A model generated the notes under the pieces. That model worked only from the letters and a program-made list of their open reading frames with translations. It made no database searches and had not been told where the DNA came from. A program made the translations under genes and the position numbers. 64,000 nt of DNA from an uncultured Chloroflexia bacterium (GTDB taxonomy: Bacteria > Chloroflexota > Limnocylindria > Limnocylindrales > CSP1-4), in NCBI GenBank assembly GCA_963812745.1, contig CAWEWE010000004.1:332734-396733 (forward strand). The letters are read 5' to 3'. Shown piece by piece: positions 11,869-58,176 of the stretch; positions within the stretch are counted from its first letter, which is position 1, and each line of letters opens with the position of its first letter.

Positions 11869-13142
11869 GCACGGATCGGCCGACCACGCGCTCGCGCGTC
11901 CCGCCGGTCTTCGAGTCGCTCGCGTACCTGTATGGGCCCGCGGAGCCGTCGCATCTTGCGGTCATGGTCGAGGCGAGCGATCGCTGGGAGCTGCCGCGGC
12001 CGCCCGACGCGGGCGTCGACGTCGTGCTGTGGGGACGGCACGCCCGCAACATCCGACCGTCCGCGTCGGGCATCCCGTTCGCGGTCCGCCGCGAGGCGGC
12101 ACTGGCGCGGCTGCGCGGCCGGCCGCCCCGCGGGCTGCGCCTCGCCGAGCTCCACCGCCTGGTGCCGGTGTCGCGACCCGGTCGCCTGCGGCGACCGATC
12201 CGGAACGTGCTGCTCGGCGGCGCCCTGGCCGAGCTCGTTCGCGGCGATCGACCGACGCGCGTCATCGATGCCGTCGCCGTGGCTGCTGGCGCCCCATCGA
12301 TCAGTCGGGGGTTGCGGCCGAGTGGCGACGGATCGGCCCTCGCGCGCCTCGACCTCGACGCCCGGACCCAGGCCGAGTTGCGCGTGGCCAAGGTCGGCCA
12401 CACGAAGGACCCGGCGCGCGGCCGCGCGGCCCTGCTCGCCCTGGCGGCCGCCGACGTCCCGCTCGTCCCCCGACCGCTGGGCGGCGGCATCACGGCCGGC
12501 GCGGCATGGGCGACCGAGTCGGTCATGGTGGGTCAGCATGTCGACACGCTGACGCCGGCCCTGCTCGACCAGATCACCCGGTTCCTTGCCGCGTTGCCCG
12601 CAGGTCCCGTCGACCGACGCGCGGTCGACGATCAGCTGGCCGAGGTCGCCGAGGTCTTCCCCGAGCATGCGGCGGCCTTCGAGCGGGCCGCGGCTTCGGC
12701 CGCCAGGTGGGGAGCGTCCCTGCCGGCGGTCCTCGTGCATGGCGACATGTGGCTCAACAACGTGTTCATCACCGACGGGCAGCTGAGCGGCGTGTTCGAC
12801 TGGGATACCTGGCACCCGGCCGGCCTGCCCGGCACCGACCTGTTGAACCTGCTGGCGGCGGATGCCCGGACGCATCAGCGCCGCGACATCGGTGAATTGC
12901 TCGCCGCCGACTACTGGCGCTCACCCGACGTCGTCGATGCGCTTCGCGCGTACGCGCGTGCGCGCGATCTGCCTGCCCCCGATGACGCCGGTCTGGCGGC
13001 CATCGCGATCGGCTGGTGGGCGAGCCGTGTCGCCGGCTCGCTCCATCGAGCCCACCGCTCGATCGACGATCCGGCCTGGGTCCGGCGCAACGTCGACCTC
13101 GCCCTCGATCGCATCGAGCGGCTCGAGCGGGAGCTCGGCTAG
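11865..13142 (+). CDS. phosphotransferase-family (APH/CotS-like) kinase
   Basis: Brenner catalytic motif HGDMWLNNVF and Mg-binding motif FDWDTW. The start overlaps the flippase stop (ATGA), implying translational coupling. Confidence 0.7.
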   Translation: MSTDRPTTRSRVPPVFESLAYLYGPAEPSHLAVMVEASDRWELPRPPDAGVDVVLWGRHARNIRPSASGIPFAVRREAALARLRGRPPRGLRLAELHRLVPVSRPGRLRRPIRNVLLGGALAELVRGDRPTRVIDAVAVAAGAPSISRGLRPSGDGSALARLDLDARTQAELRVAKVGHTKDPARGRAALLALAAADVPLVPRPLGGGITAGAAWATESVMVGQHVDTLTPALLDQITRFLAALPAGPVDRRAVDDQLAEVAEVFPEHAAAFERAAASAARWGASLPAVLVHGDMWLNNVFITDGQLSGVFDWDTWHPAGLPGTDLLNLLAADARTHQRRDIGELLAADYWRSPDVVDALRAYARARDLPAPDDAGLAAIAIGWWASRVAGSLHRAHRSIDDPAWVRRNVDLALDRIERLERELG

Positions 13143-18924: not shown

Positions 18925-19614
18925 TTAGGACTCCGCCCGCGCGAGCCCGTTGCGGATCGCGTACCGCGTCAGCGCGTTCATGCCGCGGATGCCGAGCTTC
19001 GTCGACACGTTGGCCAGATGGCGGCGGACGGTGTGCACGCTGATGTCGAGCGACTGGGCGATCTGGGCGGCCGACTGGCCGGACGCCAGCAGGCTCAGGA
19101 CCTCGCGCTCCCGCGCGCTCATCGTGCCGGCCTCGAACCAGCGGATCGAGTCCTCGACGACGGCGTTGGTCACGCTGCTGTGGAGGTAGCGATCACCCCG
19201 CGCCACGGCCCGGATGGCCTCGACAAGCTCGCGCGACTGGGCACCTTTGATCATGTACCCGGCGGCTCCCGCGGCGAGTGCCTGGCGGACCGTCTCCGGG
19301 TCGCTGTGCATCGTCAGGACCACCACCCGGAGATCGGGCTGGCGGGCGCGCAGCGCACGGAGGAGCGGCATGGCATCGCCCTCGGGGAAGGTCAGGTCGA
19401 GGACCAGCACGTGCGGCCGCTGCGTCACGACGAGGTCGAGCGCCGACGCATGGTCGGCGGCCTCGCCGACGATCTCGAAACCCTTCTCGCCCTGGAGCAC
19501 CATCCGCAGGCCCTCTCGGATGAGGTGGTGGTCGTCGACGAGCGCCACGCGGATCACCCCGGGCAGGGCCGCACGCGACGAGACGCGATGCGCGAGGTCC
19601 GGCGTGGGCTCCAT
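18925..19614 (-). CDS. two-component response regulator, NarL/FixJ (LuxR-type HTH) family
   Basis: Receiver domain (VALVDDHHLIREGL...LVLDLTFPEGD) plus a C-terminal LuxR HTH (REREVLSLLASGQSAAQIAQSLDISVHTVRRHL). Confidence 0.85.
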   Translation of the reverse strand: MEPTPDLAHRVSSRAALPGVIRVALVDDHHLIREGLRMVLQGEKGFEIVGEAADHASALDLVVTQRPHVLVLDLTFPEGDAMPLLRALRARQPDLRVVVLTMHSDPETVRQALAAGAAGYMIKGAQSRELVEAIRAVARGDRYLHSSVTNAVVEDSIRWFEAGTMSAREREVLSLLASGQSAAQIAQSLDISVHTVRRHLANVSTKLGIRGMNALTRYAIRNGLARAES

Positions 19615-19650: not shown

Positions 19651-20724
19651 TCAGGACGGACTGCCGGCGGCCGCGGCACTGGGCACGACGATCTCGACGC
19701 GCGTCCCGGAACCACGCTGCGTGCGGACCTCGACCGTGACTCCGTGGATGCTGGCGCGCTCGTACATGCCGTCCAGGCCGAGCCCACGATCGCGAGCGGA
19801 GGCGTCGAACCCGATTCCGTCGTCACCGACGACCAGCCGCACGGTGTCGTCGACGAGGTGCCCGCCGATCCAGATCCGCCGCGCCCGGCTGTGCCGTGAC
19901 GCGTTGCCGAGCGCCTCCTGGACGATCCGGTAGAGATCGATCTCCATCTCGGGCTCGAGGAAGCCGGGTGGCAGGAGGGCTGGGTCGAAGCGCAATTCGA
20001 CGGGGACGCCGGCCGACCGGGCGAGGTTGTTGAGCGCGGCACCGAGGCCGATCTCGTGCACCCGCGTGGGCCGCAGCTTGGCCGCGACCTGGCGGGTCTC
20101 GGCGAGTGCCGCGGCCGCGAGCTCGCGCGCGCGCAGGACCCCCGTCTGATGCGTCGCCTGTCCGGTCCGACGGTCGGCATCCTTGACGTCGGTGACCTGA
20201 AGTTCGTGGTCGGCCGCATCGAGCGTGAGGATCACCGCGGTCAGCGTCTGGCCGACGCCGTCATGGAGCTCCCGGGCGAGGCTCGCGCGCTCCTCCTCGT
20301 GGGCGGTCACGAGCCGCTCGCTCGCCTTGCGGTACAGCGCCGCATAGTGGCGAGCCGAGGTGGAGACGCGGTCCGCAAGGACGGCGACGATCACCGCGAT
20401 CGCGACCATGAGCGGCCATTCGGTGAACTCGAGCTGCTCTTCTGTGGGCGGCACGCCGACCGCGTCCGACACCGCGAGGTAGGCGACCATCACGATGGTC
20501 GCGACGAGGATGCGCCACAGCGCGGCAGCCAGGCCGTAGATGAAGGCGCCGATGGCGACGGTGAGCCACAGGCCCTGCAGCAGGATCTCCGGATCGGCCA
20601 GGCGCAGGAACAGCGCGACCGCGAAGACACCGCAGGCCAGGTCCACGACGCGGCGGAGCAGGACGGGATCCAGTGTCGCCAGACGTGATGAACGATGGTC
20701 CCTGAACGGACCGTCGATGGTCAT
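19651..20724 (-). CDS. sensor histidine kinase, HisKA_3/NarX-like
   Basis: TM segments followed by the H-box EERASLARELHDGVGQTL and an HATPase_c region. I place the start at MTIDGPF (ATG 20722-20724); the track ORF extends to 20913. Confidence 0.75.
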   Translation of the reverse strand: MTIDGPFRDHRSSRLATLDPVLLRRVVDLACGVFAVALFLRLADPEILLQGLWLTVAIGAFIYGLAAALWRILVATIVMVAYLAVSDAVGVPPTEEQLEFTEWPLMVAIAVIVAVLADRVSTSARHYAALYRKASERLVTAHEEERASLARELHDGVGQTLTAVILTLDAADHELQVTDVKDADRRTGQATHQTGVLRARELAAAALAETRQVAAKLRPTRVHEIGLGAALNNLARSAGVPVELRFDPALLPPGFLEPEMEIDLYRIVQEALGNASRHSRARRIWIGGHLVDDTVRLVVGDDGIGFDASARDRGLGLDGMYERASIHGVTVEVRTQRGSGTRVEIVVPSAAAAGSPS

Positions 20725-20791
20725 CCGTGAGCCCCCATTTGATGGATGTTGAGTATAGGCAGGGGCAGTCGAGGGAACAATGATGTGGTGG

Positions 20792-20809
20792 CCGAATCGG
20801 GGGATTCGG
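20792..20809. promoter_or_regulatory. perfect inverted repeat CCGAATC-gggg-GATTCGG in the divergent HK / RND intergenic region
   Basis: Seen in the sequence about 90 nt upstream of the RND1 start and about 70 nt upstream of the HK start. It is a candidate operator for the adjacent NarL-type regulator. Confidence 0.3.
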
Positions 20810-20900
20810 TCGGGATCGTGGTGGGTCCTGTCAACACCAGCGTCGCTGAGGGGCGGCGTCTGCGGCTGTTTTCCCGACGGGAGTGGTGGGGGATGACGAC

Positions 20901-23900
20901 ATGATGCGTGCACTAGTCAGCACAAGCGTTCGCTTCCGGCTGATCGCGATCGGCATCGCCGGCGTGCTCTTGCTGGTGGGGGCGACCCAGCTGCAGAACG
21001 CGCGCGTCGACGTGCTGCCGGAGTTCTCGCCGACGATCGTCGAGGTCCAGACCGAGGCGCTCGGCCTGTCGGCCGAGGAAGTCGAGGAGCTCGTCACGGT
21101 CCCGTTGGAGGCCGACCTCCTCCACGGCGTGGCCTTCCTCGAGAAGATCGAGTCGAAGTCCCTGCCCGGCCTGTCGTCGATCCAGATGACCTTCGAGCCG
21201 GGCACCGAAGTGCTCAAGGCCCGCCAGGTGGTCGCCGAGCGGCTGACGCAGTCGCACGCCCTCCCGAACGTCGCCAAAGCGCCGGTCATGCTCCAGCCCC
21301 TCTCATCCCTCAACCGGTTCATGATCGTCGGCCTCAGCTCGAGCGAGAAGTCGCTCATCGAGATGTCGGTGCTGGCGCGCTGGAACATCCAGCCGCGCCT
21401 CATGGGCGTCCCCGGCGTCGCGAACGTGTCGATCTTCGGCCAGCGCGAGCGGCAGCTCCAGGTCCTGGTCGACCCGGCCCAGCTGCGCCAGCGCGGGGTC
21501 ACACTCGACCACGTGGTCGAGACCGCCGGCAACGCACTGTGGTTCTCGCCCCTGACCTTCCTCGAGGCGTCGACGCCGGGCACCGGCGGCTTCATCGACA
21601 CGCCGCAGCAGCGGCTCGGCATCCAGCACATCCTGCCCATCCGCTCCGCCGAAGACCTCGCCCAGGTCGCCATCGACCGCGGTCCCGATGCGGCGCCTCT
21701 GACCCTCGGTGACGTCGCGACCGTCGTCGAGGACCACCAGCCGCTCATCGGCGACGGGATCGTCGGCAACGGCAACGGCCTCGTGCTCGTCATCGAGAAG
21801 TTCCCTGATGTCAACACGCTCGATGTCACCCGCAATGTCGAAGCCGCGCTCGCGGCGATGCAGCCGGGCCTGCCCGGCATCCAGGTCGATACGACGCTCT
21901 TCCGCGAGGCCTCGTTCATCGATGCCTCGCTCGGCAACGTGTCGCTGGCGCTGCTGGCTGGCTTCCTCCTGATCGCGCTCGTCCTGGGTCTCATCCTGTT
22001 CGACTGGCGAGCCGCGCTGATCAGCCTCATCACCATCCCGCTGGCGGTGCTCGCAGCCGCCGTGGTGCTCCACCTCATGGGCGTGTCGCTCAACGCGATC
22101 AGCGCAGTCGGGATCATGATCGCCGTCGGGGTGGTGGTCGACGACGTCGTCGGCCTGGTCGAGGGCGTGCGTCATCGGCTACGGACGCCACGGCCCGGGG
22201 ACGTGGATTCCGGACGCGCGAGCGTGATCACCGAGGCCGTCCTCGAGAGCCGTGGTCCGGTCGTCTACGCGACCCTGATCATCCTCGTGGCGCTCCTGCC
22301 GCTCCTGTTCGTGGACGGCACGCTCGGCGCCTTCCTGCCGTCCCTCCTGCGCGCGTATGCAGTCGCCATCGTCGCGTCACTCATCGTGTCCGTGACGGTC
22401 GCCCCGGCACTGGCAGTCCTCGTCCTCTCTGCTGCACCTGGCGAACGGCGCGAGTCGCCCCTCCTCCGGCGACTCCGCCGCTCGTACGAGTCGGCCATGA
22501 GCTGGTTCGCGAGCCGCGCGCGGCCGGCGTGGGTGATGATCGGCACCGTCGTCGTCGCCGCCGCGGTCCTCGCAAGTGTTGCCATCGCGCCCGCGGACGG
22601 GAACGGCGTCCTGCCATCGTTCCGCCAGCGTGATCTCCTCATCCACTGGGATGGCGCGCCGGGCATCTCGCATCCGGAGATGAACCGGATCGTGGGCCGC
22701 GCCGCAGCCGAGCTGCGCACGATCCCGGGCGTCCGCAACGTCGGCGCCCACGTCGGCCGCGCGATCATGTCCGACGAGCGGGCCAACGTGAATACCGGCG
22801 AGATCTGGGTCAGCATGGATCCGGGCGCCGATTACGACCGGACCCTCGATGCCGTCCAGACGACCGTCGACGGCTATCCCGGCCTGGCGCGGTCGGTGAC
22901 GACCTACCCGGCCGACCGTATCGCCGAGGTGTTCGGCACCCCGGATCGCGACGTCGCCGTCCGGATCTACGGGCAGGACCTGTCGACGCTCGAGACCAAG
23001 GCCGAGGAAGTCCGCGGCGCGATCTCCGGCATCGGCGGTATCCAGGCGCCGTCTGTCTCCACGACCGTCAAGGAGCCCACGGTCCAGATCGAAGTCGACC
23101 TGGACAAGGCGGCCGCAGTCGGCCTCAAGGCCGGCGACGTCCGGCGGGCCGCCACCTCGCTCCTGTCCGGCATCCAGGTCGGCAACCTCTTCGAGGAGCA
23201 GAAGGTCTTCGAGGTCGTCGTCTGGGGTACGCCGGAGCACAGGGCGAGCCTCGATACCATCAAGGCACTGCTGATCGATACGCCCGACTCCGGGCTGGTC
23301 CGGCTTGGCGATGTCGCCGACGTCAAGGTCGCGGCGGTGCCGAGCGTGATCGACCGCGAAGGCGTGATGCGCTACCTGGACGTCACGGCAGACGTCCAAG
23401 GCCGTGACATCGGATCCGTCGTCGCGGACGTCCGGGCAGCCGTCGCAGCGGTGCCCTTCGCCATCGAATACCACGCCGAGATCAATAGCGCCGGCCTCGA
23501 GCGGCAGGCCGCGCAGATGCAGCTGCTGGTTCTGGCCGCCGGCTGCGTGGTGCTGATGCTGCTGCTCCTCCAGGCCACGTTCGGCGCCTGGCGACTCGCC
23601 CTGCTGGTGCTGCTGGCGGTGCCGGCGGCGGCCGCTGGTGGTGTCGTCCTGGCGCTGGCGACGGGTCAGCTGCTAACGCTGGGGGCGCTTGCCGGGTTCA
23701 TCCTGGTCATCGCCATCACGATCCGCCACGCCGTCGCCCTCATCGATCGCTTCCGGCGGATCGAGCGGAGCGGCGCTGTCCCTGGCGCCGAGGTGGCAGT
23801 GGCCGCCGTCCAGGAGCGGCTGGTCCCGATCGTGACGACCCTGCTTGCCACCGCCGCGTTCGCCCTGCCGTTCATCGTCCTTGGCGACGTGGCCGGCCTC

Positions 23901-24068
23901 GAGATCCTGCGGCCCATGGCGATCTTCGTCCTGGGTGGGCTCGTGAGTGCCGCCCTGCTGATCCTGTTCGTCGTCCCGAGCATCTACATCCTGTCCGGCC
24001 CGAGCCCGGAGTCCGAGACCGAATCGTTGTTGAGCGAACCACCGGCCCTCGAGCCGACCGCGGCATAG
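20901..24068 (+). CDS. RND efflux transporter permease, CzcA/CusA-like (heavy-metal-efflux type)
   Basis: 12-TM architecture with two large periplasmic loops. Conserved TM4 motif GVVVDDVVGLVEG. N-terminus similar to CzcA ([35 protein letters not shown]). In-frame ATG at 20901, with a possible GTG at 20883. Confidence 0.85.
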   Translation: MMRALVSTSVRFRLIAIGIAGVLLLVGATQLQNARVDVLPEFSPTIVEVQTEALGLSAEEVEELVTVPLEADLLHGVAFLEKIESKSLPGLSSIQMTFEPGTEVLKARQVVAERLTQSHALPNVAKAPVMLQPLSSLNRFMIVGLSSSEKSLIEMSVLARWNIQPRLMGVPGVANVSIFGQRERQLQVLVDPAQLRQRGVTLDHVVETAGNALWFSPLTFLEASTPGTGGFIDTPQQRLGIQHILPIRSAEDLAQVAIDRGPDAAPLTLGDVATVVEDHQPLIGDGIVGNGNGLVLVIEKFPDVNTLDVTRNVEAALAAMQPGLPGIQVDTTLFREASFIDASLGNVSLALLAGFLLIALVLGLILFDWRAALISLITIPLAVLAAAVVLHLMGVSLNAISAVGIMIAVGVVVDDVVGLVEGVRHRLRTPRPGDVDSGRASVITEAVLESRGPVVYATLIILVALLPLLFVDGTLGAFLPSLLRAYAVAIVASLIVSVTVAPALAVLVLSAAPGERRESPLLRRLRRSYESAMSWFASRARPAWVMIGTVVVAAAVLASVAIAPADGNGVLPSFRQRDLLIHWDGAPGISHPEMNRIVGRAAAELRTIPGVRNVGAHVGRAIMSDERANVNTGEIWVSMDPGADYDRTLDAVQTTVDGYPGLARSVTTYPADRIAEVFGTPDRDVAVRIYGQDLSTLETKAEEVRGAISGIGGIQAPSVSTTVKEPTVQIEVDLDKAAAVGLKAGDVRRAATSLLSGIQVGNLFEEQKVFEVVVWGTPEHRASLDTIKALLIDTPDSGLVRLGDVADVKVAAVPSVIDREGVMRYLDVTADVQGRDIGSVVADVRAAVAAVPFAIEYHAEINSAGLERQAAQMQLLVLAAGCVVLMLLLLQATFGAWRLALLVLLAVPAAAAGGVVLALATGQLLTLGALAGFILVIAITIRHAVALIDRFRRIERSGAVPGAEVAVAAVQERLVPIVTTLLATAAFALPFIVLGDVAGLEILRPMAIFVLGGLVSAALLILFVVPSIYILSGPSPESETESLLSEPPALEPTAA

Positions 24069-24079
24069 GAGCGACTCTG

Positions 24080-24514
24080 ATGACACGACATCGCTGGTTC
24101 CTGACCGGTATCGCGGTCGCCGCGCTGGCCCTGGGTGCCTGCAACAGCGGCTCGACCACATCCGAACCCAAGGTCGAAGCCATCACCATCGCCGAGGACG
24201 AGGCGACGGGTCTCAAGACCCTGACCCTGTCCGAGAAGGCCGCGGAGCGCCTGGGCGTCGAGACCGCGGAAGTCGCCGGGAGCGGCTCGCAGATGTCGAT
24301 CCCGTACGCCGCCGTCGTCTATGACGCCCAGGGCAAGACCTGGACCTACGTCAATGCCCAGCCGCTCGTGTACCAGCGCGCCGAGATCACGGTCGACGAG
24401 ATCGACGGCGATGTCGCGCGCCTCTCCGTGGGGCCGGCGAGCGGTGCGCTCGTCGTCACGACGGGTGCGGCCGAACTGTACGGCGCTGAGATCGGCGTCG
24501 GCGGCGGTCATTGA
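24080..24514 (+). CDS. 144-aa lipoprotein resembling only the C-terminal beta-barrel/membrane-proximal part of an RND membrane-fusion (periplasmic adaptor) protein
   Basis: Lipobox LALGAC. Mature region IPYAAVVYDAQGKTWTYVNAQPLVYQRAEITVDEIDGDVARLSVGPASGALVVTTGAAELYGAEIG matches the MFP C-terminal pattern (..P.sAv..d.qG..yVfv......r.v..g...g..v.i..Gl..Ge.vV..G...L.dG..v). RBS AGGAG. It lies between the two RND pumps. Confidence 0.55.
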   Translation: MTRHRWFLTGIAVAALALGACNSGSTTSEPKVEAITIAEDEATGLKTLTLSEKAAERLGVETAEVAGSGSQMSIPYAAVVYDAQGKTWTYVNAQPLVYQRAEITVDEIDGDVARLSVGPASGALVVTTGAAELYGAEIGVGGGH

Positions 24515-24553
24515 TCACCGCCTAACCCACGTCACTGGGGGGAGACCTCGGTC

Positions 24554-27500
24554 ATGATGCGCCGGATCATCGCTCTCAGCCTGCGCTTCCGCTTCATCGT
24601 CGTCGCGCTTGCGGCGGCCCTGTTGATCTTCGGTGCTGCCCAAGTGCAGGCCATGCCAGTCGACGTCTTCCCGGAGTTCGCTCCGCCGAAGGTCGAGATC
24701 CAGACGATCTGCATCGGCCTGTCGGCTGAGGAGGTCGAGCAGCTCGTCACGGTGCCGATCGAGCAGTCGCTCGCCGGCATCGAGGGCCTGGAGACCATCC
24801 GTTCGAAGTCGGTCATCCAGCTCTCGCAGGTCGTGCTGCTGTTCAAGCCCGGGACGAACGAGCTCGAAGCTCGCCAGCTCGTAGCCGAACGGCTCGCCCA
24901 GATAACACCGTCGCTACCGACCTGGGCCGCACCACCGGTGATGCTCCAGCCGCTGTCGGCGACGAGCCGCGTCATGAAGATCGGTCTGAGCTCCGAGACG
25001 GTCGATCAGATCGACATGTCGATGATCTCGTACTGGACGATCCGGCCCCGACTGCTGAGCGTCTCCGGCGTGGCGAACGTCGCCATCTGGGGCGAGCAGA
25101 TCGACATGCTGAGCGTGCAGGCCATCCCGGACAAGCTCGTCGAGCACGGGGTCGCCCTCACCGACATCATGGACGCCGTCTCCGAGACGCTCGATGACGG
25201 GCTCCTGCAGTTCAACACCGGCAACTTCACGGGGACCGGCGGGTACATCGACACGCCCAACCAGCGCTTCGTCATCCGCCACGTGCCGCCCGTCGTCGGC
25301 GTCGAGGATCTCGCCCACGTCACCGTCCCAGGCCGCGACGGCCAGGCGGTCCCGCTCACCGACGTGGTCGAGCTGGTCCGCGCCCATCAGCCGCTGATCG
25401 GCGAGGCAGTCATCAACGACGGGCCGGGCGTCATGCTCATCGTCGAGAAGTTCCCGTGGGCCAACACGCTCGACGTGACTCGTGGCGTCGAGCTCGCCCT
25501 CGACGACCTTCGACCGGGCCTGTCCGGCATCGACGTCGACCACACGATCTTCCGCCCGGCCAGCTTCATCGAGCAGGCACTCCACAACCTGTCGAATGCG
25601 CTGATCCTCGGCAGCATCCTCGTATTCGTCATCCTGATCGTCTTCCTGTTCGAGTGGCGGACCGCGCTGATCAGCCTCGTGGCGATCCCGCTGTCGCTGA
25701 TGGCCGCCGCGATGGTCCTGTACTTCCGGGACGTCACGATCAACACGATGATCCTGGCGGGCTTCGTCATCTCGGTGGGGGTCGTCGTCGACGACGCGAT
25801 CATCGACGTCGAGAACATCACCAGACGGCTGCGCCTGGCGCGCCTCGAGGGCAGCACGAGGTCGACCGCTTCGATCATCCTCGACTCGTCGCTGGAGGTC
25901 CGCAGCGCGATCGTCTATGCCACGCTGATCGACGTCATCGCGGTGTCGCCGGTGTTCTTCATCAGCGGCCTGTCGGGTTCGTTCTTCCAGCCGCTGGTGA
26001 TCTCCTATGGGCTCGCCGTGCTGGCATCGCTGGTCGTCGCGCTCACGGTCACACCGGCGATGGCCTTCATCCTGCTGCGCAACGCTCCGATCGAGCGCCA
26101 GCGCTCACCCATCACCAAGCGGCTGCAGGAGGGCTACGCCCGCCTCATCACGCGCATCCTCCGGACGACGCGTCCCGCCTTCGTGACGGTCGGCCTGGTG
26201 AGCATGGTCGGGCTCGGCGTGTGGCCGCAGCTCGGCCAGTCGCTCCTGCCCGACTTCAAGGAACGCGACTTCCTGATGCACTGGGTGACCGCGCCGGGTA
26301 CATCCATCGGCGAAGAGACCCGGATCACGATCGAAGCGTGCAACGAGCTGCGCGAGATCCCCGGTGTTCGCAACTGCGGGTCGCACATCGGCCAGGCCTT
26401 CGTCGCCGACGAGCCGTACGGCGTCGAGTTCGGCGAGAACTGGATCAGCATCGATCCGGCGGTGGACTACGACAAGACGCATGCCGCCGTCCTCGAGGTG
26501 GTCAACGGCTACCCGGGCCTTCGGCGCGACGTGCAGACTTATCTGAAGGAGCGCATCCGCGAGGTCCTCACCGGCTCCAGCGACGCCATCGTCATCCGCA
26601 TCTACGGTCCGGACCTCAAGGTCCTCAAGGACCTCGCCGATGACGTCGAGGAGAAGCTCGGCGCCATCCCGGGGATCATCGACCTCCACAGTGAGCAGTT
26701 GATCGACATCCCCCAGATCCAGGTCCAGGTCGACCTCGCCAAGGCGCAGGCCCACGGCGTGAAGCCGGGTGACGTCCGGCGCATCGCCTCGACCTACATG
26801 GCCGGCGAAGAGGTCGGCGACATCTTCAACACCGGCAAGGCGTACGACGTGGTCGTCTGGAGCGTCCCGCAGAAGCGCGGTAGCGTCACGGACGTCGAGA
26901 ACCTCCTCATCGACACCGCGTCCGGTAGCAAGGTCGCCCTCAAGACGATCGCGGATGTGACCGTCGCGCCGACCGCCGGCCACGTGAACCACGAGGAGAC
27001 GGCCCGTCGGATCCACGTCGATGCGAACGTCAGCGGCCGCGACCTCGGTGCGGTGATCACCGACGTGAAGGCCGCGCTCGCCACCGTGCAGTTCCCGCAG
27101 GAATACCATCCGGAGCTGCTCGGTGAATACCAGGAGCGGCAGGCGGCGCAGGACCGGCTCCTGCTGTTCGCGATCGTCGCGGCGGTCGGCGTGTTCCTGC
27201 TCCTGCAGGCGTCGTTCGGTAGCACGCGCCTGGCGATCCTGTCGTTCCTGACCCTTCCGTCGGCACTCGTCGGCGGCATCCTCGCCGCGTGGGTCGGGAC
27301 CGGCGTGGTGTCGCTCGGGGCACTCGTCGGGTTCTTCACGGTGCTGGGCATCGCGGCCCGCAACGGCATCATGATGATCAACCACTTCCAGCACCTCGAG
27401 CGCTACGAGGGGATGGAGTTCGGGCCGGCCCTCGTGGTCCGCGGAGCCCGGGAGCGGCTGGCACCGATCCTCATGACGGCGCTCGCGACCGGCCTCGCGC

Positions 27501-27679
27501 TCGTCCCGCTGGCGATCGCCGGCGACCTGCCGGGCCATGAGATCGAGCACCCGATGGCGATCGTCATCCTGGGCGGCCTGGTCACCTCGACCCTGCTCAA
27601 CCTGTTCGTCGTCCCGTCCCTCTACCTGCGGTTCGGCCGGAGCAAGCCTGCGACCTCAGGAGCCGCCGCGGCGGCCTGA
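24554..27679 (+). CDS. RND efflux transporter permease, CzcA/CusA-like (second paralog)
   Basis: TM4 motif [20 protein letters not shown] is typical of HME-RND. RBS GGGGGGAG. 1041 aa. Confidence 0.85.
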
Positions 27680-27731
27680 CACGCTCCCCGCGCGACCCGG
27701 GGTCACTGTCCCAGCGTTCCCGTCGAGGGGA

Positions 27732-27763
27732 GCCGAATGACGGCCAAGCGGCCGTCATTCGGC
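27732..27763. terminator. perfect 14-bp hairpin GCCGAATGACGGCC-aagc-GGCCGTCATTCGGC, bidirectional terminator between convergent genes
   Basis: Seen in the sequence between the RND2 stop (27679) and the APH-family gene stop (27793). Confidence 0.55.
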
Positions 27764-27792
27764 GTATCCGGGGGTCGAACGCTGGACGGCCG

Positions 27793-28812
27793 CTACTGCC
27801 GAGCGTCGAGCCGCTCGATGAGGTCGACCAGCCACATCGCCGGGCCGTCGCCGAACGTTCCCATCGCCGCGGGGTCGACGCCGGAGAGTGCTCGCGCCCA
27901 TGCCGCCGACTTGCCGATCCGACCGAGATCGAGTGCCAGCCCGAGGACGTCGTGCAGGGCGGCCCGCGGCAGCACGTCGGTCCAGGCTTCCAGGTAGGCA
28001 TCGCGAAGGCGGATGAGCTCCGGTCCATCGGGATCCGTGCCCAGCCGGTGGGCGACCGAGTTCAGCGTCGTGACCAGCGTCGCGAACGGGTGGGCCACGG
28101 CCGCGTCGCCCCAATCGAAGAAGCGGACACCGTCCGTGCCCACGAAGACGTTGCCGCTATGCAGATCGTCGTGCTGGATCGTGGCCGCGATCCCCGAGCG
28201 GTCCAGCTCACCGGCCGTGGCCGCGACCCACTCTCCCAGGCCGCGTAGCCGCTCGCGACCCGCCTCCGCCGCCGGCCGGTCGTCGTCACCGACAAGTGCC
28301 CACCACTGATCGTCCTCGACGATCCGTGCCAGCTCCCCGGGGAGCGCCGCGGGCCTGCCGTCCGGGACGCCCAGCGCGAGCAGCTCCCCTACGCGATCCT
28401 CGACACTTCGTTGGAGAAGGGCGTAGTCGGCGAGGATCCGCTCCCACGCGGCGAGGTCGGCGTCGCCAGTGCCGTCCGGACGAGTCTGGCGGAGCGTCGG
28501 GCCGCCGTCCTCGAAGAGCAGCCATCCTCGCTCGGCGTCCGCGTCGAGCGGCAACGACACGTGCCCCACGTTCCACGCTGCGAACGCCGTCAGCAGCCCC
28601 GCCTCGTGGGCGGTGCCCGGGCCGGAGGCCTTGCACCAGACGGCGCCACCGTCGGTCAGGATGCGGAACACCGTCGACCACGGCCGGACGTGCGGCTGCT
28701 CCACCGTTCCGACGACCGAGCGGCCGTGGGCCCTGAGCCGATCACGCGCCCAGGCGAGGATCGTCTCGACCCACGCAGGGTCGGTCCAGGCGGTCCGGCC
28801 CTGCCCGCTCAT
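27793..28812 (-). CDS. phosphotransferase-family (APH-like) kinase
   Basis: Catalytic motif HDDLHSGNVF and Mg-binding motif FFDWGDAAVAHPF. The start MSGQGRTAW (ATG 28810-28812) overlaps the upstream phosphoesterase stop (ATGA). Confidence 0.7.
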   Translation of the reverse strand: MSGQGRTAWTDPAWVETILAWARDRLRAHGRSVVGTVEQPHVRPWSTVFRILTDGGAVWCKASGPGTAHEAGLLTAFAAWNVGHVSLPLDADAERGWLLFEDGGPTLRQTRPDGTGDADLAAWERILADYALLQRSVEDRVGELLALGVPDGRPAALPGELARIVEDDQWWALVGDDDRPAAEAGRERLRGLGEWVAATAGELDRSGIAATIQHDDLHSGNVFVGTDGVRFFDWGDAAVAHPFATLVTTLNSVAHRLGTDPDGPELIRLRDAYLEAWTDVLPRAALHDVLGLALDLGRIGKSAAWARALSGVDPAAMGTFGDGPAMWLVDLIERLDARQ

Positions 28813-29810
28813 CCCGGGCTGAAGAACTCGTCCATCGTCCCGGCCGAACAGGACTCGGCGAGGCAGTCGAGACCCCACGCGTCCTGGATCGTGCGCAGCA
28901 GCGTGTAGTGGTCGTGCCGCTCGGTCGACCGGGAGCCGGCCGGGATGTGAGGTGAGGCCACGATCGTGGCGATGTGCCCGCCCGAGGGCTCGTCGCCGGC
29001 GTCCTCGTCGAACGTCACGACGAGCAGCCCGCCGTCACGGAACGCGTCGCTCTCGAGGATGGTGGGCACGAGCTCGGCCAGCCAGGCGTCGGCCCGGTCC
29101 AGCGGGCAGTCGTGCGCGTTGTGGCACTGGTTCGGGACGATGAAGGCGAAGTCCGCGTCTCCGGGCCGGAAGGCGGTGAAGTCCTGCAGATACGCACACC
29201 GGCGCGGGTCGGTCCGGATGCTCGTGAAGCTGATGGCCGGCGCGTGCTTGCGCTCGTACACCCCCTCGCCGTCACGCCCACCGCTGGCGGAGCTCCCGGT
29301 GAAACACCCGTCGGGGCGGTTCTCCGCGTACTCGCGCCATGTCCGCCCGCGCGCCTCGATCTGGTCGGCGATGGTCGGCGCGTCGATGTCGTGGCTGCGG
29401 TTGTCGGTCACGCCGTGGATCGAGCCGCTGAACATGGCGAAGTAGTTGGGCTGCGACGGCCGGGCGACACCGAACGACCGCTCGGCCAGGCCGAAGCGCT
29501 CGATCAGCCCGTTGGTGTACGGCATGTCGTCCGCCCCGACCACCCGGTCGTAGTCCTGGTTCTCGAGGACGATGATCCAGACGTTGGGGAAGTCCGGGAT
29601 CGCGGCCGACGGACTCGGCCCGGCCGACGAGGACGGCGACGGCGACGCGCTGGTCGATGGCGCCACGGTGGCGGATGGCGGTGCCGTCGCTGATCGCGAC
29701 GGGGCGGGCGTGGGGGTCGAGCCGGCCCGTTGCGTCAGTCCGTATGCCAACAGGACCACGACGACCAGGCCGACGCCGAGGGCGAACGCGATCGAGCGCT
29801 GCTTCGTCAC
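28809..29810 (-). CDS. membrane-anchored phosphoesterase-family protein (phospholipase C / acid phosphatase AcpA-like, PF04185-type)
   Basis: N-terminal TM (IAFALGVGLVVVVLLAYGL) and a Ser/Pro-rich linker. The phosphoesterase core has IIVLENQDYD...NYFAMFSGS...IVPNQCHNAHD motifs. Confidence 0.65.
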   Translation of the reverse strand: MTKQRSIAFALGVGLVVVVLLAYGLTQRAGSTPTPAPSRSATAPPSATVAPSTSASPSPSSSAGPSPSAAIPDFPNVWIIVLENQDYDRVVGADDMPYTNGLIERFGLAERSFGVARPSQPNYFAMFSGSIHGVTDNRSHDIDAPTIADQIEARGRTWREYAENRPDGCFTGSSASGGRDGEGVYERKHAPAISFTSIRTDPRRCAYLQDFTAFRPGDADFAFIVPNQCHNAHDCPLDRADAWLAELVPTILESDAFRDGGLLVVTFDEDAGDEPSGGHIATIVASPHIPAGSRSTERHDHYTLLRTIQDAWGLDCLAESCSAGTMDEFFSPG

Positions 29811-32479: not shown

Positions 32480-32684
32480 GGAACATCTGATGTTCCGATC
32501 GACGCCTGGGCGGCGCCTCGAGCGGCGGTTCTTGGCTTTTGGAACCTCACGATGTTCCAATCAGCGGCTGAAGTTCGCGAAGATCGGTCCTCGTTCGCCG
32601 TTTGGAACCTCCAGTGTGTTCCAACCCGCCGAGCAGCCATGGCGATAAGGCGGTTCGATCGCCGGTCGGAACATAGGGTGTTCC
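32480..32684. repeat. array of four regularly spaced (61-64 bp) inverted repeats GGAAC-N7-9-GTTCC (mostly TTGGAAC...GTTCCAA)
   Basis: Site 1 (32480-32496) is GGAACATCTGATGTTCC, a perfect 17-bp palindrome. Site 2 is 32539-32560, site 3 is 32602-32624 and site 4 is 32668-32684. All lie in the 600-bp non-coding stretch between mscL and GGDEF-EAL gene 1. Confidence 0.6.
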
Positions 32685-33044
32685 AAAGGCGGCCGCCGGC
32701 GAGGTGACGATCGCTCAGTCGTCTCTCGGTTGCTCCCTGAGGTACCCATCCGGGACGACGCCCACGACCTCCATCCCGTACCGAGCCGCGATCTCCTCGA
32801 GTGCGGTTTCGTCCATCCCGGTCCGCAACCCCGCGGCCAGCTCGTCGAAGAGTCACGTCGAAGCCGCCGACGTCGATCATGCGCGCCTCGCCCGGACCGG
32901 GCACGAACGCACCATCACCGAGTCTCACGATCGAGGGCCTCCCTCCAGACGCACCGGGACGTTCGTACCGGTGATTATCGAGGGTCCGTTGGGGTACAGA
33001 TAGGTCCGCCGCAGTCTGGCGCCGCCTGGGGATGCGCGAACAGG

Positions 33045-34667
33045 ATGTCCAAGAAGCCGAGGAAGCTCCCGCGATCGTCGTCCCGAGCGATCAGCCGCCT
33101 CACCACGACCGCGTTCGTGTTCGATGTGCTCGTCGCCGTGATCGCTGTCGGGGCATCGACCGCGCTGGTCGGCGGCGCGCTGGGTCCAGGGGGAACGACC
33201 CTGGATCCGGTCGTGCTCGTCGGGGCGGCGGGCGCGACGATGGCCACCCTCGTCCTGGGCGTGCTGGCGTTCGCCACGGTGCGCATCCGCCACCACGCAG
33301 CCGTCCTCGAATCCGAGCGCTCGGATCTGCGCGAGGCCTATGACCGGGCGCGGCTGGACTCGCTCCGCGACGGGCTGACGGGACTCGGCAACCATCGAGC
33401 ATTCCAGGAAGAGCTCGACGTCCAGGTCGCGACGGCCCGGGACGAGGACGCGCCGCTGGCCCTACTCATCGTCGACGTCGACGACCTCAAGAAGATCAAC
33501 GACCGACGCGGTCACGCGGCGGGCGATGAACTGCTTCGCGCCGTCGCCCAAGTCATGCACGCGAACCTGCGGCGATCGGATCGTGCGTACCGGATCGGCG
33601 GCGACGAATTCGCATTGCTGCTGCCGGGCTGCGGTCTCGACGACGCGGCGATCATCGCCAATCACCTCCTGGCAGCGACGCTCGGCGGCCACCATGGTCG
33701 GATCGGCTCGTTCTCGGTCACCATCGGCATCTCGGCGTTCCCCACGCCGAGCTCGGATCGACAACAGCTGCTCCACCACGCCGACGCGGCGATGTACGCC
33801 GGCAAGCGCCATGGCCGGACGAAGGTGGAGCTGTTCGATCCGCGGCGCCACGGCATCGCCGACGACACCCGGACACTCGCGCAGCTGGTCGCTGCGGTCG
33901 AACGCGTGACCACGAAGGGCCAGTTGCAGGCGGTCTACCAGCCCATCTACTCGCTGCGCACTGGTGCGGTCTCGGGGTTCGAGGGCCTTGTCCGGCTCGG
34001 ACCCAACGCGGAGTTCGACGCACCGACCGCGCTGTTCGTGGCCGCCGAGGCGACCAGTCGCACGATCGAGCTCGATGTCGTCTGTGCCGAGACGGTCCTG
34101 GCCGGCGCGCGCGATCTTCGACCCGACCAGTACCTCTCGATCAACCTGTCGCCGCGGACCCTGGAGTCCGACGCGTTCAGCCCGCTCGAGGTGCTAGCCC
34201 TCGCCCGCCGCTACGGCGTCCCGCCGACCCAGCTGGTCATCGAGCTGACCGAACGCGAGGCCGTGGAGGACCTCGAGAGCCTCCGCTCGGCCGTGGCCGC
34301 ATTGCGACGCCAGGGCGTCCGCATCGCCCTCGACGACATCGGTGCCGGGAACGCCGGGTTGCGGCTGTTGAGCGAGGTCGACTTCGACATCATGAAGATC
34401 GACCTGTCGCTGGTCCGGGCGGGCGCCACGCATGAGCCGTCGGAAGCGGTGCTCCGCGCGCTCGGGAGCTTCGCTCGCCAGCGTGGCCACCAGATCGTCG
34501 CCGAAGGCATCGAGACCCCCGATCTCCTCGAGGCCGTGCTCGAGCTGAACTACGACGCCGGGCAGGGCTACCTGTTCGGGAAGCCCGGATCCACGATGGC
34601 GATGGCGGACCTCAAGCTGGTGGACCTGATCACCGGCGGCGAGGCCTCCGAGCATCCCGCGGCCTGA
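33045..34667 (+). CDS. membrane-anchored diguanylate cyclase/phosphodiesterase (2 TM + GGDEF + EAL)
   Basis: GGDEF domain (LTGLGNHRAFQEEL...DELLRAVAQ...RIGGDEFALLLPG) and EAL domain (YQPIYSL...ELTEREAVEDL...DDIGAGNAGL...QGYLFGKP). ATG at 33045; the track ORF from 32730 has an Arg-rich extension that is unlikely to be real. Confidence 0.85.
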   Translation: MSKKPRKLPRSSSRAISRLTTTAFVFDVLVAVIAVGASTALVGGALGPGGTTLDPVVLVGAAGATMATLVLGVLAFATVRIRHHAAVLESERSDLREAYDRARLDSLRDGLTGLGNHRAFQEELDVQVATARDEDAPLALLIVDVDDLKKINDRRGHAAGDELLRAVAQVMHANLRRSDRAYRIGGDEFALLLPGCGLDDAAIIANHLLAATLGGHHGRIGSFSVTIGISAFPTPSSDRQQLLHHADAAMYAGKRHGRTKVELFDPRRHGIADDTRTLAQLVAAVERVTTKGQLQAVYQPIYSLRTGAVSGFEGLVRLGPNAEFDAPTALFVAAEATSRTIELDVVCAETVLAGARDLRPDQYLSINLSPRTLESDAFSPLEVLALARRYGVPPTQLVIELTEREAVEDLESLRSAVAALRRQGVRIALDDIGAGNAGLRLLSEVDFDIMKIDLSLVRAGATHEPSEAVLRALGSFARQRGHQIVAEGIETPDLLEAVLELNYDAGQGYLFGKPGSTMAMADLKLVDLITGGEASEHPAA

Positions 34668-35520: not shown

Positions 35521-35823
35521 GCGCGAGTGTAGGCATGCGCGGTGCTCGACCGCCCGAGGTCGCCACGGCCCCGCGATCCGGCATCGGGACCACACGGCAC
35601 CGGCCCGATGGTCCCATCGCTCCCCATACCACCAGCGTGGTGCGACCACGGGCCTCGTTGGGTACAACTCGATGACGACCCTCGAGACCTAGGACCCTGC
35701 CGCTTGCCGACTACCGACCGGGGCGCTCCGACACGACCGAACACGCGCGCGGGCAGCTCGCCAGTCGCGGGCACGCGCGGCGCATTCAGCGCAGCCATCG
35801 GCCGTGTCCCGACGCAGGTCCGT

Positions 35824-38376
35824 GTGTGGACGCTGACCCTCGTGCTCGCGGCGGCGACGGTGGTCGCCTACGCGGTCTTCCTGGTCGATCGGCCCGGTCG
35901 CGAGGTACCGGTCGCCGTCCCATGGCCGATCATCGCGATCGCGGTCGTCATCGCCGAGCTCAAGGTGGTGCAGGTCCATTTCCGCCGCGAGACCCACGCG
36001 TTCTCGTTGAGCGAGTTCCCGGCCGTGATCGGGATGTTCTTCCTGCCACCCGGGGAGTACCTGCTTGCGGTCCTCACCGGATCCGCGGTGGCGTTCGTCA
36101 TGACCGGCTCGCGATTCGTGAAACTGGCGTTCAACCTCGCGAACTACGGGCTGATCGCGGTGATCTCGATCTCGATCGTCCTGTCGATCGCCTCCCCGAC
36201 GGGGCCGCCCGGCCTTCGCGAATGGGCGGCGGCGTTCGCGGCGACCACCCTCGCCACGGTGCTCAGCTCCGTGACGATCGCCCTCGTGATCACCCTCTCG
36301 GGCGGGGCACCGCAGTTCCAGAAGCTGCCGGAGATGATCCAGTTCGGGAGCATGGTCGCGCTCGCCAACACGAGCCTGGCGTTGCTCGCCGTGACGGTCC
36401 TGTGGCTCGATCCGATCCTGCTCTGGCTGCTGGTCCTGCCGCTCGTCATGATCTTCGTCGCCTACCAGGCCTACATCTCGGAGCGCGAGAAGCACGAACG
36501 CCTGGAGCTGCTCTACGAGTCGTCGCGGATCCTGCAGCACTCCCCGGAGATCGACTCGACGCTGGTCGCCCTGCTCAGCCACGCCAGGACGATGTTCCGT
36601 GCCGAGCTCGCCGAGGTGATCCTCTATCCGCGATCGGCGGGCGCCGAGGGGCTGTGGGCCCGGTCCTGGCACGATCGCGAACCCGAGATCGCGAGCCCAG
36701 GCGACGAGACGCTGCGACAGCCGCTGCACGACCTCGTCCGATCGTCCATCGGGCCGTTCATGCACGAGACCCGTGATCACCGCGGCAGGGTCGCCCGGCA
36801 CATGGTCGGCGCGCTGCGCGGCGAGTCCGACATCATCGGCGCGCTGGTCGTCACCAACCGGCTCACGGAGGGGACGACGTTCGGGGACGACGACCTTCGC
36901 CTGCTCGAGACCCTGGCGAACCAGACGGCGGTCGCCCTCGAGAACGGACACCTCGAGCAGTCGCTCGCCGAGCTGTCGCGCCTCAAGGAGCAGCTCCGGC
37001 ACCAGGCGTATCACGACCCGCTGACCGGGCTGCCCAACCGAACGCTCTTCCTCGAGACCGTTGCGGAGCGATTGGACGGGGAAAGTCCGCGAATGCCGGT
37101 CGTGCTGTTCCTCGACCTCGACGACTTCAAGGTCGTCAACGACACGTTGGGTCACGACGCGGGCGACCGCCTGCTGTGCGAGGTTGCGGCCCGGCTGCGC
37201 ACGGTCCTCCGCACGGGAGACATCGCGGCTCGGCTCGGTGGCGACGAGTTCGCGATCCTGCTCGACGACCCGCTTGGCCTCGGTCGGGCGAGTGTCGTGG
37301 CCGACCGGATCATCGACGCGCTGCGCGCGACCTTCCCGCTCGACGGCCGCGACATCGCGATCGGCGTCAGCATCGGGATCGCCACCGGCCGGATCGGCAT
37401 CAATGCCGACGAGCTGTTGCGCGACGCAGATGTCGCGATGTACACCGCGAAGGCGACCGGCAAGAACCGGGTCACGGTGTTCGAGCCGACGATCCACGCC
37501 GCGATCGTCGCCCGCCACGAGCTGAGCGCCGAGCTGTCACGCAGCCTCGGCCGCGGCGAGCTCGATGTCTTCTACCAGCCGATCGTCGAGCTCGCGACGC
37601 GGCGGATCGTCGGCGTCGAGGCGCTGATCCGCTGGCAGCACCCGGTGCGCGGCCTCATCGGCCCCAGCGAGTTCGTGCACCTCGCCGAGGAGACCCGCCT
37701 GATCCGACCGCTCGGCCGGTGGGTCCTGCTCGAAGCGTGCCGGCAAGCCGTGGAGTGGGCAAGCACGATCCCAGACGGAGTCGAGCTGACGATGTCGGTG
37801 AACCTGTCCGCACAACAGCTCCAGGAACCGGACTTCGTCGGTGATCTGCGCGAGATCCTCGAGGACACGGGCCTGCCGCCCCACCAGCTCGTCCTCGAGA
37901 TGACCGAGACCGTGATGTTCCACGACACCCTGACCACGCTGTCGCGGCTCGAGGCCATCCGCGACCTCGGGGTGCGCATCGCGATCGACGACTTCGGGAC
38001 CGGCTACTCATCGCTGGGCTACCTGCGCCGGTTCCGCGTCGACATCCTCAAGATCGCGCGCGACTTCATCGGCCCTGCCGATCGCGAGGAGGAATGGGCG
38101 TTCGCGAGCGCGATCGTGGCGATCGGCCGCTTGCTCGGGGTGACGATGGTCGCCGAGGGGATCGAGGAACCGGGCCAGCTCGATCGCCTGATCGAGCTCG
38201 GCTGCGAGCTCGGCCAGGGCTACCTGTTCGCCCGACCGGCGCGCGCCGCCGAGATCGGCCCATTGCTGGGCGCCGAGATCGCGACGGCCACGGCGGTTCA
38301 AGGCGACACCCCCGGAGCCGACGCGTCCGATACCCGTCCCGATCATCGTCGCGCCATGGCGGTCGACCCGACCTAG
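35824..38376 (+). CDS. multi-TM sensor diguanylate cyclase/phosphodiesterase (8+ TM, GAF, GGDEF, EAL)
   Basis: N-terminal polytopic membrane region, a GAF-like segment (IGALVVTNRLTEGTTFGDDDLRLLETLANQTAVALEN), GGDEF (RLGGDEFAILL) and EAL (ELTMSVNLSAQQL...QGYLFARP). In-frame GTG near 35824; the start is uncertain. Confidence 0.8.
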   Translation: MWTLTLVLAAATVVAYAVFLVDRPGREVPVAVPWPIIAIAVVIAELKVVQVHFRRETHAFSLSEFPAVIGMFFLPPGEYLLAVLTGSAVAFVMTGSRFVKLAFNLANYGLIAVISISIVLSIASPTGPPGLREWAAAFAATTLATVLSSVTIALVITLSGGAPQFQKLPEMIQFGSMVALANTSLALLAVTVLWLDPILLWLLVLPLVMIFVAYQAYISEREKHERLELLYESSRILQHSPEIDSTLVALLSHARTMFRAELAEVILYPRSAGAEGLWARSWHDREPEIASPGDETLRQPLHDLVRSSIGPFMHETRDHRGRVARHMVGALRGESDIIGALVVTNRLTEGTTFGDDDLRLLETLANQTAVALENGHLEQSLAELSRLKEQLRHQAYHDPLTGLPNRTLFLETVAERLDGESPRMPVVLFLDLDDFKVVNDTLGHDAGDRLLCEVAARLRTVLRTGDIAARLGGDEFAILLDDPLGLGRASVVADRIIDALRATFPLDGRDIAIGVSIGIATGRIGINADELLRDADVAMYTAKATGKNRVTVFEPTIHAAIVARHELSAELSRSLGRGELDVFYQPIVELATRRIVGVEALIRWQHPVRGLIGPSEFVHLAEETRLIRPLGRWVLLEACRQAVEWASTIPDGVELTMSVNLSAQQLQEPDFVGDLREILEDTGLPPHQLVLEMTETVMFHDTLTTLSRLEAIRDLGVRIAIDDFGTGYSSLGYLRRFRVDILKIARDFIGPADREEEWAFASAIVAIGRLLGVTMVAEGIEEPGQLDRLIELGCELGQGYLFARPARAAEIGPLLGAEIATATAVQGDTPGADASDTRPDHRRAMAVDPT

Positions 38377-46409: not shown

Positions 46410-48121
<1,712 letters not shown>

Positions 48122-48125
<4 letters not shown>

Positions 48126-54401: not shown

Positions 54402-54434
54402 GGCGGCCCCTCAGTTCGTGTCAGACAAACGAAA

Positions 54435-54458
54435 GACCCTCGCCACCCGGCGAGGGTC
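54435..54458 (-). terminator. attenuator-type terminator GACCCTCGCC-ggg(t)-GGCGAGGGTC followed by UUUCGUUUGUCUG on the ilvB-sense strand, ~20 nt upstream of the ilvB RBS
   Basis: Seen in the sequence. Its position in the ilvB leader and the U-rich tail fit transcription attenuation. A Leu/Ile/Val-rich leader ORF candidate lies at 54488..54697 (-). Confidence 0.5.
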
Positions 54459-58174: not shown

Positions 58175-58176
58175 CG

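Follow-up and report, generated by a model that had tools for sequence, protein, structure and literature searches.

What does an adaptor do when there may be no outer membrane for it to reach? Adaptors of resistance-nodulation-division (RND) pumps, also called membrane fusion proteins (MFPs), are usually explained as bridges to an outer membrane channel. The question is raised by a three-gene locus in a 64,000-nucleotide stretch of contig CAWEWE010000004.1 from an uncultured soil Chloroflexia bacterium; "the window" below means this whole stretch as analyzed. At this locus a small lipoprotein gene is enclosed by the genes for two RND permeases, RND1 and RND2. We put the probability at roughly 0.6 that the three genes form a conserved module, composed of two anciently duplicated RND permeases and a lipid-anchored MFP that has been reduced to its membrane-proximal (MP) domain. 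Such a module would be a two-layer machine in a single-membrane cell, and it may be heteromeric. The three genes are as follows.

20901-24068, plus strand: RND1, the upstream permease, 1055 aa (Pfam ACR_tran, E = 1e-169)
24080-24514, plus strand: lipoprotein, 144 aa, an MP-domain-only adaptor (signal peptide, lipobox, profile matches, AlphaFold2 [AF2] model)
24554-27679, plus strand: RND2, the downstream permease, 1041 aa (Pfam ACR_tran, E = 1e-212)

An earlier note, made from the letters of the window and a list of its open reading frames (ORFs), had described two RND permeases around a 144-aa lipoprotein. Both the ORF positions and this description, with both permeases full length, were borne out by ORF calls, ACR_tran matches, and the lipobox.

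Four independent lines, namely profiles, structure, intermediates in size, and an alignment of the family (A3), agree that the lipoprotein is an MFP homologue with the MP fold, cut down to the MP domain. Its parts are as follows.

Residues 1-21, plus strand, with the Cys21 codon at 24140-24142: signal peptide and lipobox
24209-24274, plus strand, residues 44-65: N-terminal strand-helix-strand, GLKTLTLSEKAAERLGVETAEV, which aligns with the N-terminal part of the SilB construct 5a4g
24287-24490, plus strand, residues 70-137: C-terminal MP-domain beta-roll, with the conserved helix GAAELYGAE at its end

The element at residues 44-65 is the equivalent of the N-terminal piece of the MP domain in CusB/SilB-type MFPs. 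It contains the invariant R57, and the deletion point described below lies directly after it. The beta-roll aligns by profile with CusB 320-382, MexA 265-326, and 4l8j 253-319. The RND_mfp model TIGR01730 matched weakly, at positions 247-313 of 322 (E = 0.016, 14.2 bits versus a cut-off of 94.9). No Pfam HlyD model matched the lipoprotein, and it is not a full MFP in the sense of a multidomain protein scoring above the cut-off.

We also searched all PDB sequences with a profile (A2) built from 108 diverse relatives. This profile matched TriAB (E = 1.5e-4), the Bacteroides protein 4l8j (6e-4), and SilB 5a4g (8e-3), an "N-terminus + membrane-proximal domain" construct of which residues 56-151 were matched over profile positions 38-131. 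Further matches, down to an E-value of 2, were to MexJ, TMexC, CusB 320-382, and MexA. Most of the matches, and every stronger one except 8pjx, were adaptors. The top match, 8pjx, is a designed repeat protein, and we rejected it as spurious because it shares only the short word YDxxGxTW, repeated six times.

Comparison of the fold with known MFP structures had been proposed in the earlier note, and the outcome favored its assignment. The AF2 model has a mean predicted local distance difference test score of 89.3, with values above 93 for residues 31-140. Its best Foldseek matches in the PDB were all MFPs (5a4g, TMexC, ZneB, AcrA, CusB, MexA, and BesA), with probabilities of 0.99-1.0 for the top five but weak E-values of 0.02-0.4, statistics that come from one search engine. 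Local superpositions, ZneB, CusB, MexA, and AcrA among them, gave root mean square deviations of 1.2-3.7 Å over 56-76 residues.

When 1.84 billion cluster representatives were searched exhaustively by profile, the adaptor family came to 2,154 clusters at 50% identity, 1,634 of them at E <= 1e-10. Members fall into two size classes, of about 140-165 aa and about 235-340 aa, and the smaller, or mini, forms make up 105 of the best 150 representatives listed. The longest members, P0242 and P0244 (331-336 aa), match the mini profile at both ends with E-values near 1e-30, and the part in between passes the gathering scores of Pfam HlyD_3 and HlyD_D23. Their lipoyl half-motifs lie only about 15 residues apart, and thus the longest members have no alpha-hairpin. 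In alignment A3 the lipoprotein has one clean internal deletion, lying between RLGVETAEV (57-65) and IPYAAV (74-79), which removes the lipoyl and beta-barrel segments that longer relatives keep. The MP domain of adaptors is composed of an N-terminal strand plus C-terminal elements (PMC4446572), and these are exactly the MP-domain elements that the lipoprotein retains. Profiles, Foldseek, and A3 together uphold the original description of an MFP relative lacking the hairpin, the lipoyl domain, and most of the beta-barrel. As in an adaptor, there is an MP domain homologous to those of MFPs, a membrane anchor, and a gene that adjoins transporter genes in all loci. Further variants of the family are P0137 (220 aa), P0135 (417 aa), and P0225 (500 aa); one of these has a tandem duplication of the MP domain, and a large extra domain is inserted in one and appended in another.

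The lipoprotein starts with MTRHRWFLTGIAVAALALGAC, which comprises a basic n-region, a hydrophobic core, and the lipobox LALGAC with Cys21. This cysteine is at least 90% conserved across the 108 relatives, and a lipobox was found by regular expression in 88 of the 105 mini forms. Invariant or near-invariant positions are Arg57, Pro75, Tyr81, Gly85, Arg100, Gly118-Pro119, Gly122, Val125-Val126, Gly129, Glu132, Leu133, Gly135, and Glu137, so listed for the 108 relatives, and there is no Met, His, or Cys among these columns. The mature protein has one Met, which is variable, one C-terminal His, which is K, H, or E in relatives, and a sole Cys, the lipid anchor. The tail at residues 138-144 (24491-24511, GVGGGH) is invariant in close relatives (VVTTGAAELYGAEIGVGGGH); the tails of distant relatives end in ExG[VI]G[KHE], and the tail is modeled at low confidence. 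No Pfam or NCBIfam model matched the lipoprotein above its cut-off, nor did any metallochaperone family. Pfam scans of five mini forms at E-values up to 10 returned only noise (LytB_SH3 and signal peptide models), and a precomputed PF25967 label on two relatives was not reproduced. In public sources the mini forms are mostly labeled "hypothetical protein."

The same triplet recurs well beyond this contig. A survey of orthologous loci, also suggested in the earlier note, scanned one genome per species and gave 39 related loci, and in all 39 the adaptor is flanked on either side by RND-homologous DNA, as far as the contigs reach. The RND-adaptor-RND order is also found on two Frankiales-labeled contigs (L043 and L044) and, with a medium adaptor form of 261 aa, in L046 and L047. 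The order differs in L045, where the adaptor gene precedes both RND genes, and in L042, which has a long-form adaptor, RND1 and the adaptor are separated by an ABC transporter.

RND1 and RND2 share 45% identity over about 1,035 residues. In a neighbor-joining tree the upstream and downstream pumps form two separate clades with congruent branching, and the upstream branches are longer. Judged from their sequences, RND1 and RND2 are ancient paralogue lineages under unequal constraint, RND1 being the faster evolving. One ORF at L023 (L023_D2 in the tree) was set aside as an unrelated third RND, which accounts for an aberrant row, L023_D, of the site table described below.

A natural fusion ties the adaptor to one of the two pumps. 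P0233 (L048:2553-6212), of 1219 aa, is an RND1-type permease fused to a mini adaptor, with the former adaptor signal peptide placed after the twelfth transmembrane helix (TM12), where a thirteenth helix would be needed. Its 90%-identity cluster has three members, all of 1219 aa and each on a separate contig. In the one locus inspected, L048, an RND2-type gene comes after the fusion gene, and before it stands the same divergent pair of HisKA_3 kinase and NarL regulator as in the window. The fusion lends indirect support to a direct contact between RND1 and the adaptor. A different modification occurs in two Hyphomicrobiaceae-labeled loci (L038:5595-6431 and L039:9377-10273), in which the middle gene encodes 278-298 aa, an N-terminal membrane helix replaces the lipobox, and there is an insertion of about 100 residues with no Pfam match. 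No outer membrane factor (OMF) or OEP match was found around either locus.

Both permeases are full length. Against ACR_tran (PF00873; cut-off 28), RND1 scored 566.8 bits and RND2 709.1 bits over model positions 1-1019, and hydropathy is consistent with the 12 membrane helices and two large outside loops of the RND superfamily. They had been described as heavy metal efflux (HME) pumps, and this holds in part. The solved structure nearest to RND2 is ZneA (375 bits), followed by CusA (282) and AcrB-type pumps (about 205-245). The NCBIfam model TIGR00914 (CusA/CzcA) is the best family for both permeases, but its scores, 412.1 for RND1 and 554.0 for RND2, are below the cut-off of 701.45. Nor does TM4 have an HME signature. 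RND1 carries AVGVVVDDVVGLVEG, read as AVG-VVV-DDV-VGL-VEG, and RND2 is of the type SVG-x3-DDA-x3-VEN, with residues DDAIIDVEN; taken together, the two are xVG-x3-DD[AV]-x3-VE[NG]. The motif VVDD..V.N, claimed for both, is literally present in neither: VVDD is in both, but VEN is in RND2 only (RND1 reads VVDDVVGLVEG). Classical HME signatures in the Nies classification are DFG-x3-DGA-x3-VEN (HME1-3a), AIG-x3-DGS-x3-VEN (HME3b), and AVG-x3-DAA-x3-IEN (HME4), and neither permease fits any of them. The PMC7060636 supplement assigns DDA..VEN to NieA ("HME5?") as well as to AcrB, AcrD, and AcrF, and therefore this type of TM4 does not discriminate.

Turning to the periplasmic sites, ZneA has a proximal zinc site at 136/602/610/654/658 and a distal site at 72/172/599 (PMC7060636 supplement), which we mapped through a HMMER alignment, the distal positions by our own count. 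The proximal site corresponds to R139/E620/E628/E666/E670 in RND2 and to R/E/E/D/E in RND1. RND2 thus has carboxylates at four of five ZneA proximal positions, and these are near-invariant in downstream orthologues. In a site table of orthologues from 23 related loci, the near-invariant residues of downstream pumps are R139, E620, E628, E666, E670, H576, and R936-N937 (TM10), along with D413, D414, D418, E420, and N421 in TM4. Upstream pumps keep the DD pair and the TM10 Arg, and their periplasmic carboxylates and other sites vary. The VEN glutamate and the periplasmic carboxylates have been lost by RND1, not by RND2, in many lineages.

The host was identified through the related loci. A sequence identical to the lipoprotein was found on a metagenome contig of 1.35 Mb (ENA ERZ25039588). 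The closest of these (64-89% identity) are all on Chloroflexota metagenome-assembled genomes labeled Chloroflexia or "Candidatus Limnocylindria," which corrects the earlier attribution to an actinobacterium; more distant loci are from Thermomicrobiales and several Actinomycetota. We took the envelope type of the host from the phylum literature, in which Chloroflexota are grouped with bacteria lacking a lipopolysaccharide outer membrane (PMC10608941). The genomes of "Ca. Limnocylindria" average 68.9% GC (PMC10608941), matching the window. No HlyD-type (MFP) or OEP (OMF) Pfam match was found in the 64-kb window, among ORFs supported by GC content at third codon positions (GC3) and further sizeable candidate ORFs. 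The earlier statement that the window holds no full-length MFP or OMF was thus confirmed by the Pfam scans. The proposal of a minimal tripartite pump was not, as nothing suggests a third, outer membrane component and the window has no OEP match. Also in the window is a gene (5482-8435, minus strand) for a large protein in which SpaA-type prealbumin-fold repeats occur at least seven times and which would fit a single-membrane envelope. The SpaA-type prealbumin-fold domain is associated with Gram-positive surface proteins.

These observations suggest how the module may work. If the host has a single membrane, there would be no outer membrane channel to reach, so that the bridging domains would be dispensable and the MP domain, which touches the pump, would be kept. 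The lipoprotein would be tethered to the outer face of the cytoplasmic membrane via Cys21, with a flexible linker of about 12-20 residues (low confidence at about residues 22-33) between Cys21 and the MP domain. Docked on the porter domains, it would help to assemble or activate the pump and would not form a tube. The pair of permeases would most likely act jointly, a mixed trimer like MdtB2C being plausible, with RND2 contributing a conserved substrate site and RND1 acting as its diverged partner. A mixed trimer with division of labor is suggested by the strict co-inheritance of the pair together with the drift of the periplasmic sites of RND1. Expression would probably be set by the adjacent membrane-embedded HisKA_3 kinase and NarL-type regulator. 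A bolder version would make the trio of single-membrane bacteria (Chloroflexota and Actinomycetota) a distinct two-layer class of RND pump, in which an obligate mixed trimer is clamped or activated by the MP-only lipoprotein; we hold this version tentatively and would not bet on it.

Two points weigh against the proposed module. The heterotrimer is derived from co-inheritance and asymmetric conservation only, which two homotrimers would fit equally well. In addition, a few family members are on short contigs labeled Hyphomicrobiaceae or Steroidobacteraceae, families that have an outer membrane.

The first of these points is the substance of the leading alternative, that RND1 and RND2 are independent homotrimeric pumps with different substrates that share an operon and the MP-only adaptor, as the title of the earlier note suggests. 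The homotrimer is the usual form of known RND pumps, and rarity has been ascribed to heterotrimers such as MdtBC (PMC8277102). Each permease, full length and with its TM4 DD pair and TM10 Arg, could also pump alone. However, the two genes are inherited together at all loci examined and the trees are congruent, the loss of periplasmic carboxylates and of the VEN glutamate is confined to RND1, which fits a division of labor, and the natural fusion joins the adaptor to RND1 specifically. We therefore consider two separate homotrimers unlikely.

It is improbable that the lipoprotein is instead a substrate (metal) chaperone, like CusF or the N terminus of CusB, and not a structural or activating subunit. 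The pump and adaptor do resemble metal efflux lineages (ZneA, CusB, and SilB), and a structural role leaves E132 and E137 in the C-terminal helix, as well as the short, partly conserved tail, unexplained. Nevertheless, a chaperone is hard to reconcile with the absence of conserved Met, His, or Cys, with an N-terminal linker that has no Met-rich site like that of CusB and SilB, and with the lack of any metallochaperone family match. The CusF-like role offered in the earlier note is disfavored on the same grounds. CusF has Met and His (plus Trp) ligands on a small beta-barrel, and the lipoprotein has no conserved ligands of this kind.

Finally, although our view is limited to 64 kb of the genome and some relatives are on contigs with proteobacterial labels, we rejected as highly improbable the idea that the pump is an ordinary tripartite one, whose true adaptor and channel lie elsewhere, and that the lipoprotein is what is left of a decaying MFP. 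The 144-aa form is widespread (the 2,154 clusters and the predominance of mini forms noted above) and strongly constrained by purifying selection, its lipobox is intact, its fold is compact and confidently modeled, and it keeps its position in 39/39 loci. Even the longest relatives lack the hairpin, and no OMF is near the Hyphomicrobiaceae-labeled loci.

Returning to the proposed three-gene module, its substrate would be, as a weakly favored candidate, a cation (a divalent metal or some cationic compound), because RND2 has a ZneA-like carboxylate cluster and the adaptor is of CusB/SilB-like lineage. Several observations count against a classical heavy metal system. ZneA E136 is replaced by Arg in RND2, and the distal site is not kept (72/172/599 are S/N/V). 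TM4 is of the DD type common to AcrB, the kinase has no periplasmic metal sensor domain, and there are no metal genes near the pump locus. We know of no classical metal-sensing kinase with about four helices and no outside sensor domain.

Known systems resemble the trio in part. CusB, ZneB, and SilB share with the lipoprotein an N-terminal motif, x-L-x-x-x-x-x-x-x-LG-V/I-x-T-A-x-V, the C-terminal beta-roll, and a gene that adjoins an RND gene, and the closest counterpart is the engineered SilB construct 5a4g. Unlike them, the lipoprotein has no beta-barrel, lipoyl domain, hairpin, or Met-rich metal site, is lipid anchored, and is encoded between two RND genes. That adaptors can shed domains is clear from BesA of Borrelia, which has no alpha-hairpin (PMC4446572), as is also the case for the 331- to 336-aa relatives. 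However, BesA keeps its lipoyl, beta-barrel, and MP domains and uses an outer membrane channel, whereas the lipoprotein keeps the MP domain only. For the permeases, the nearest parallel is MdtABC of E. coli, which has genes for two RND paralogues and an adaptor in one operon, and in which MdtB and MdtC form a heterotrimer, MdtB2C (PMC8277102). There, MdtA is a full four-domain MFP, TolC is used, and the gene order is different; in the present trio a heteromer is what we infer. ZneA, the nearest solved relative, resembles RND2 in its carboxylates at 602/610/654/658. RND1 and RND2 differ from ZneA, CzcA, and CusA in scoring below the TIGR00914 cut-off and in having a TM4 as in NieA and AcrB. As an analogy only, mycobacterial MmpS-MmpL also pairs a membrane-tethered accessory protein of about 140 aa with an RND superfamily transporter in the absence of a classical lipopolysaccharide outer membrane. 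The likeness ends there, as the lipoprotein has no MmpS match (Pfam, E up to 1), the permeases match ACR_tran and not MMPL, and the adaptor is MFP derived.

Every part of the trio descends from known families, and it is not categorically new. Within the limited literature searched, we found no earlier account of an MP-only adaptor, of an RND adaptor in single-membrane bacteria, or of the trio. A 2015 review of adaptors reported that Gram-positive adaptors had been expected to lack the hairpin and were found otherwise, and its sole Gram-positive adaptor with an MP domain was YknX (PMC4446572). An additional role of the adaptor MP domain in controlling the pump remains a matter of debate (PMC4446572). 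The family described here is a natural experiment on this point, in which all bridging domains are gone and the MP domain is kept under strong constraint, in about 2,000 clusters and beside two RNDs. One small soluble domain together with a pump would be a simple system for studying MP-domain function. If the trio is indeed a distinct two-layer class, the MP domain would have its own role, such as activation, assembly, or cargo loading, independent of bridging. AcrB-like RND pumps in bacteria without an outer membrane have been called unexpected (PMC11170357), and the family could start to explain their role. The trio has no name, although it is common in bacteria that are usually considered to have no outer membrane.

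Upstream of the pump genes are the putative regulators, as follows.

19651-20724, minus strand: HisKA_3 histidine kinase (Pfam HisKA_3 and HATPase_c; the longest ORF reaches 20913)
18925-19614, minus strand: NarL/LuxR-type response regulator, divergent from the pump genes (Pfam Response_reg and GerE)
20725-20900, no strand assigned: divergent intergenic region, presumed to hold promoter and regulator sites

The gene-caller start of the kinase is at 20724, and the gene call is 357 aa in locus L001. A hydropathy scan of the kinase showed about four membrane helices and no domain of any size outside the membrane. The response regulator adjoins the pump genes in Limnocylindria loci and also in L048, the distant locus with the fusion. 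Positions 20725-20900 gave no match to the sigma-70 consensus, and a scan of 20500-28000 for promoter and terminator consensus sequences was empty.

RND1 and the lipoprotein are separated by 11 nt and the lipoprotein and RND2 by 39 nt, and because these spacers are so short, the three genes are most simply a single transcription unit. GC3 is 0.90-0.92 in both RND ORFs, which is typical of real genes in this window of 69% GC. RND1 has two possible starts. It had been given as 1061 aa from 20901, a length that is correct for the GTG at 20883; from the ATG at 20901 it is 1055 aa. We prefer ATG 20901, since it brings MMRALV into line with MMRRII of RND2. A purine-rich sequence, GGAGTGGTGGGGGA, lies directly 5' of this ATG.

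Downstream, a gene for an APH-family phosphotransferase (27793-28878, minus strand) is convergent with RND2 and keeps that place in many close Limnocylindria loci; a second APH-family gene is at 11853-13142 (plus strand). Elsewhere in the window there are genes for three GGDEF-EAL proteins, one with a GAF domain (32649-34667 and 35533-38376, plus strand; 54850-56601, minus strand). An acetolactate synthase gene (52535-54410, minus strand) is split into two overlapping frames, one with TPP_enzyme_N/M and the other with TPP_enzyme_C, probably by a frameshift, whether an assembly error or real; RND2 and HerA are likewise split in L002, another assembly of this organism. Positions 46410-63999 hold a branched-chain amino acid cluster with two LeuA-like genes, leuB, ilvC, ilvB, and leuCD, and with ilvD at the window end. 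This cluster is interrupted by a GGDEF-EAL gene, a CvpA-trypsin fusion, and a major facilitator superfamily transporter with a cyclic-nucleotide-binding domain.

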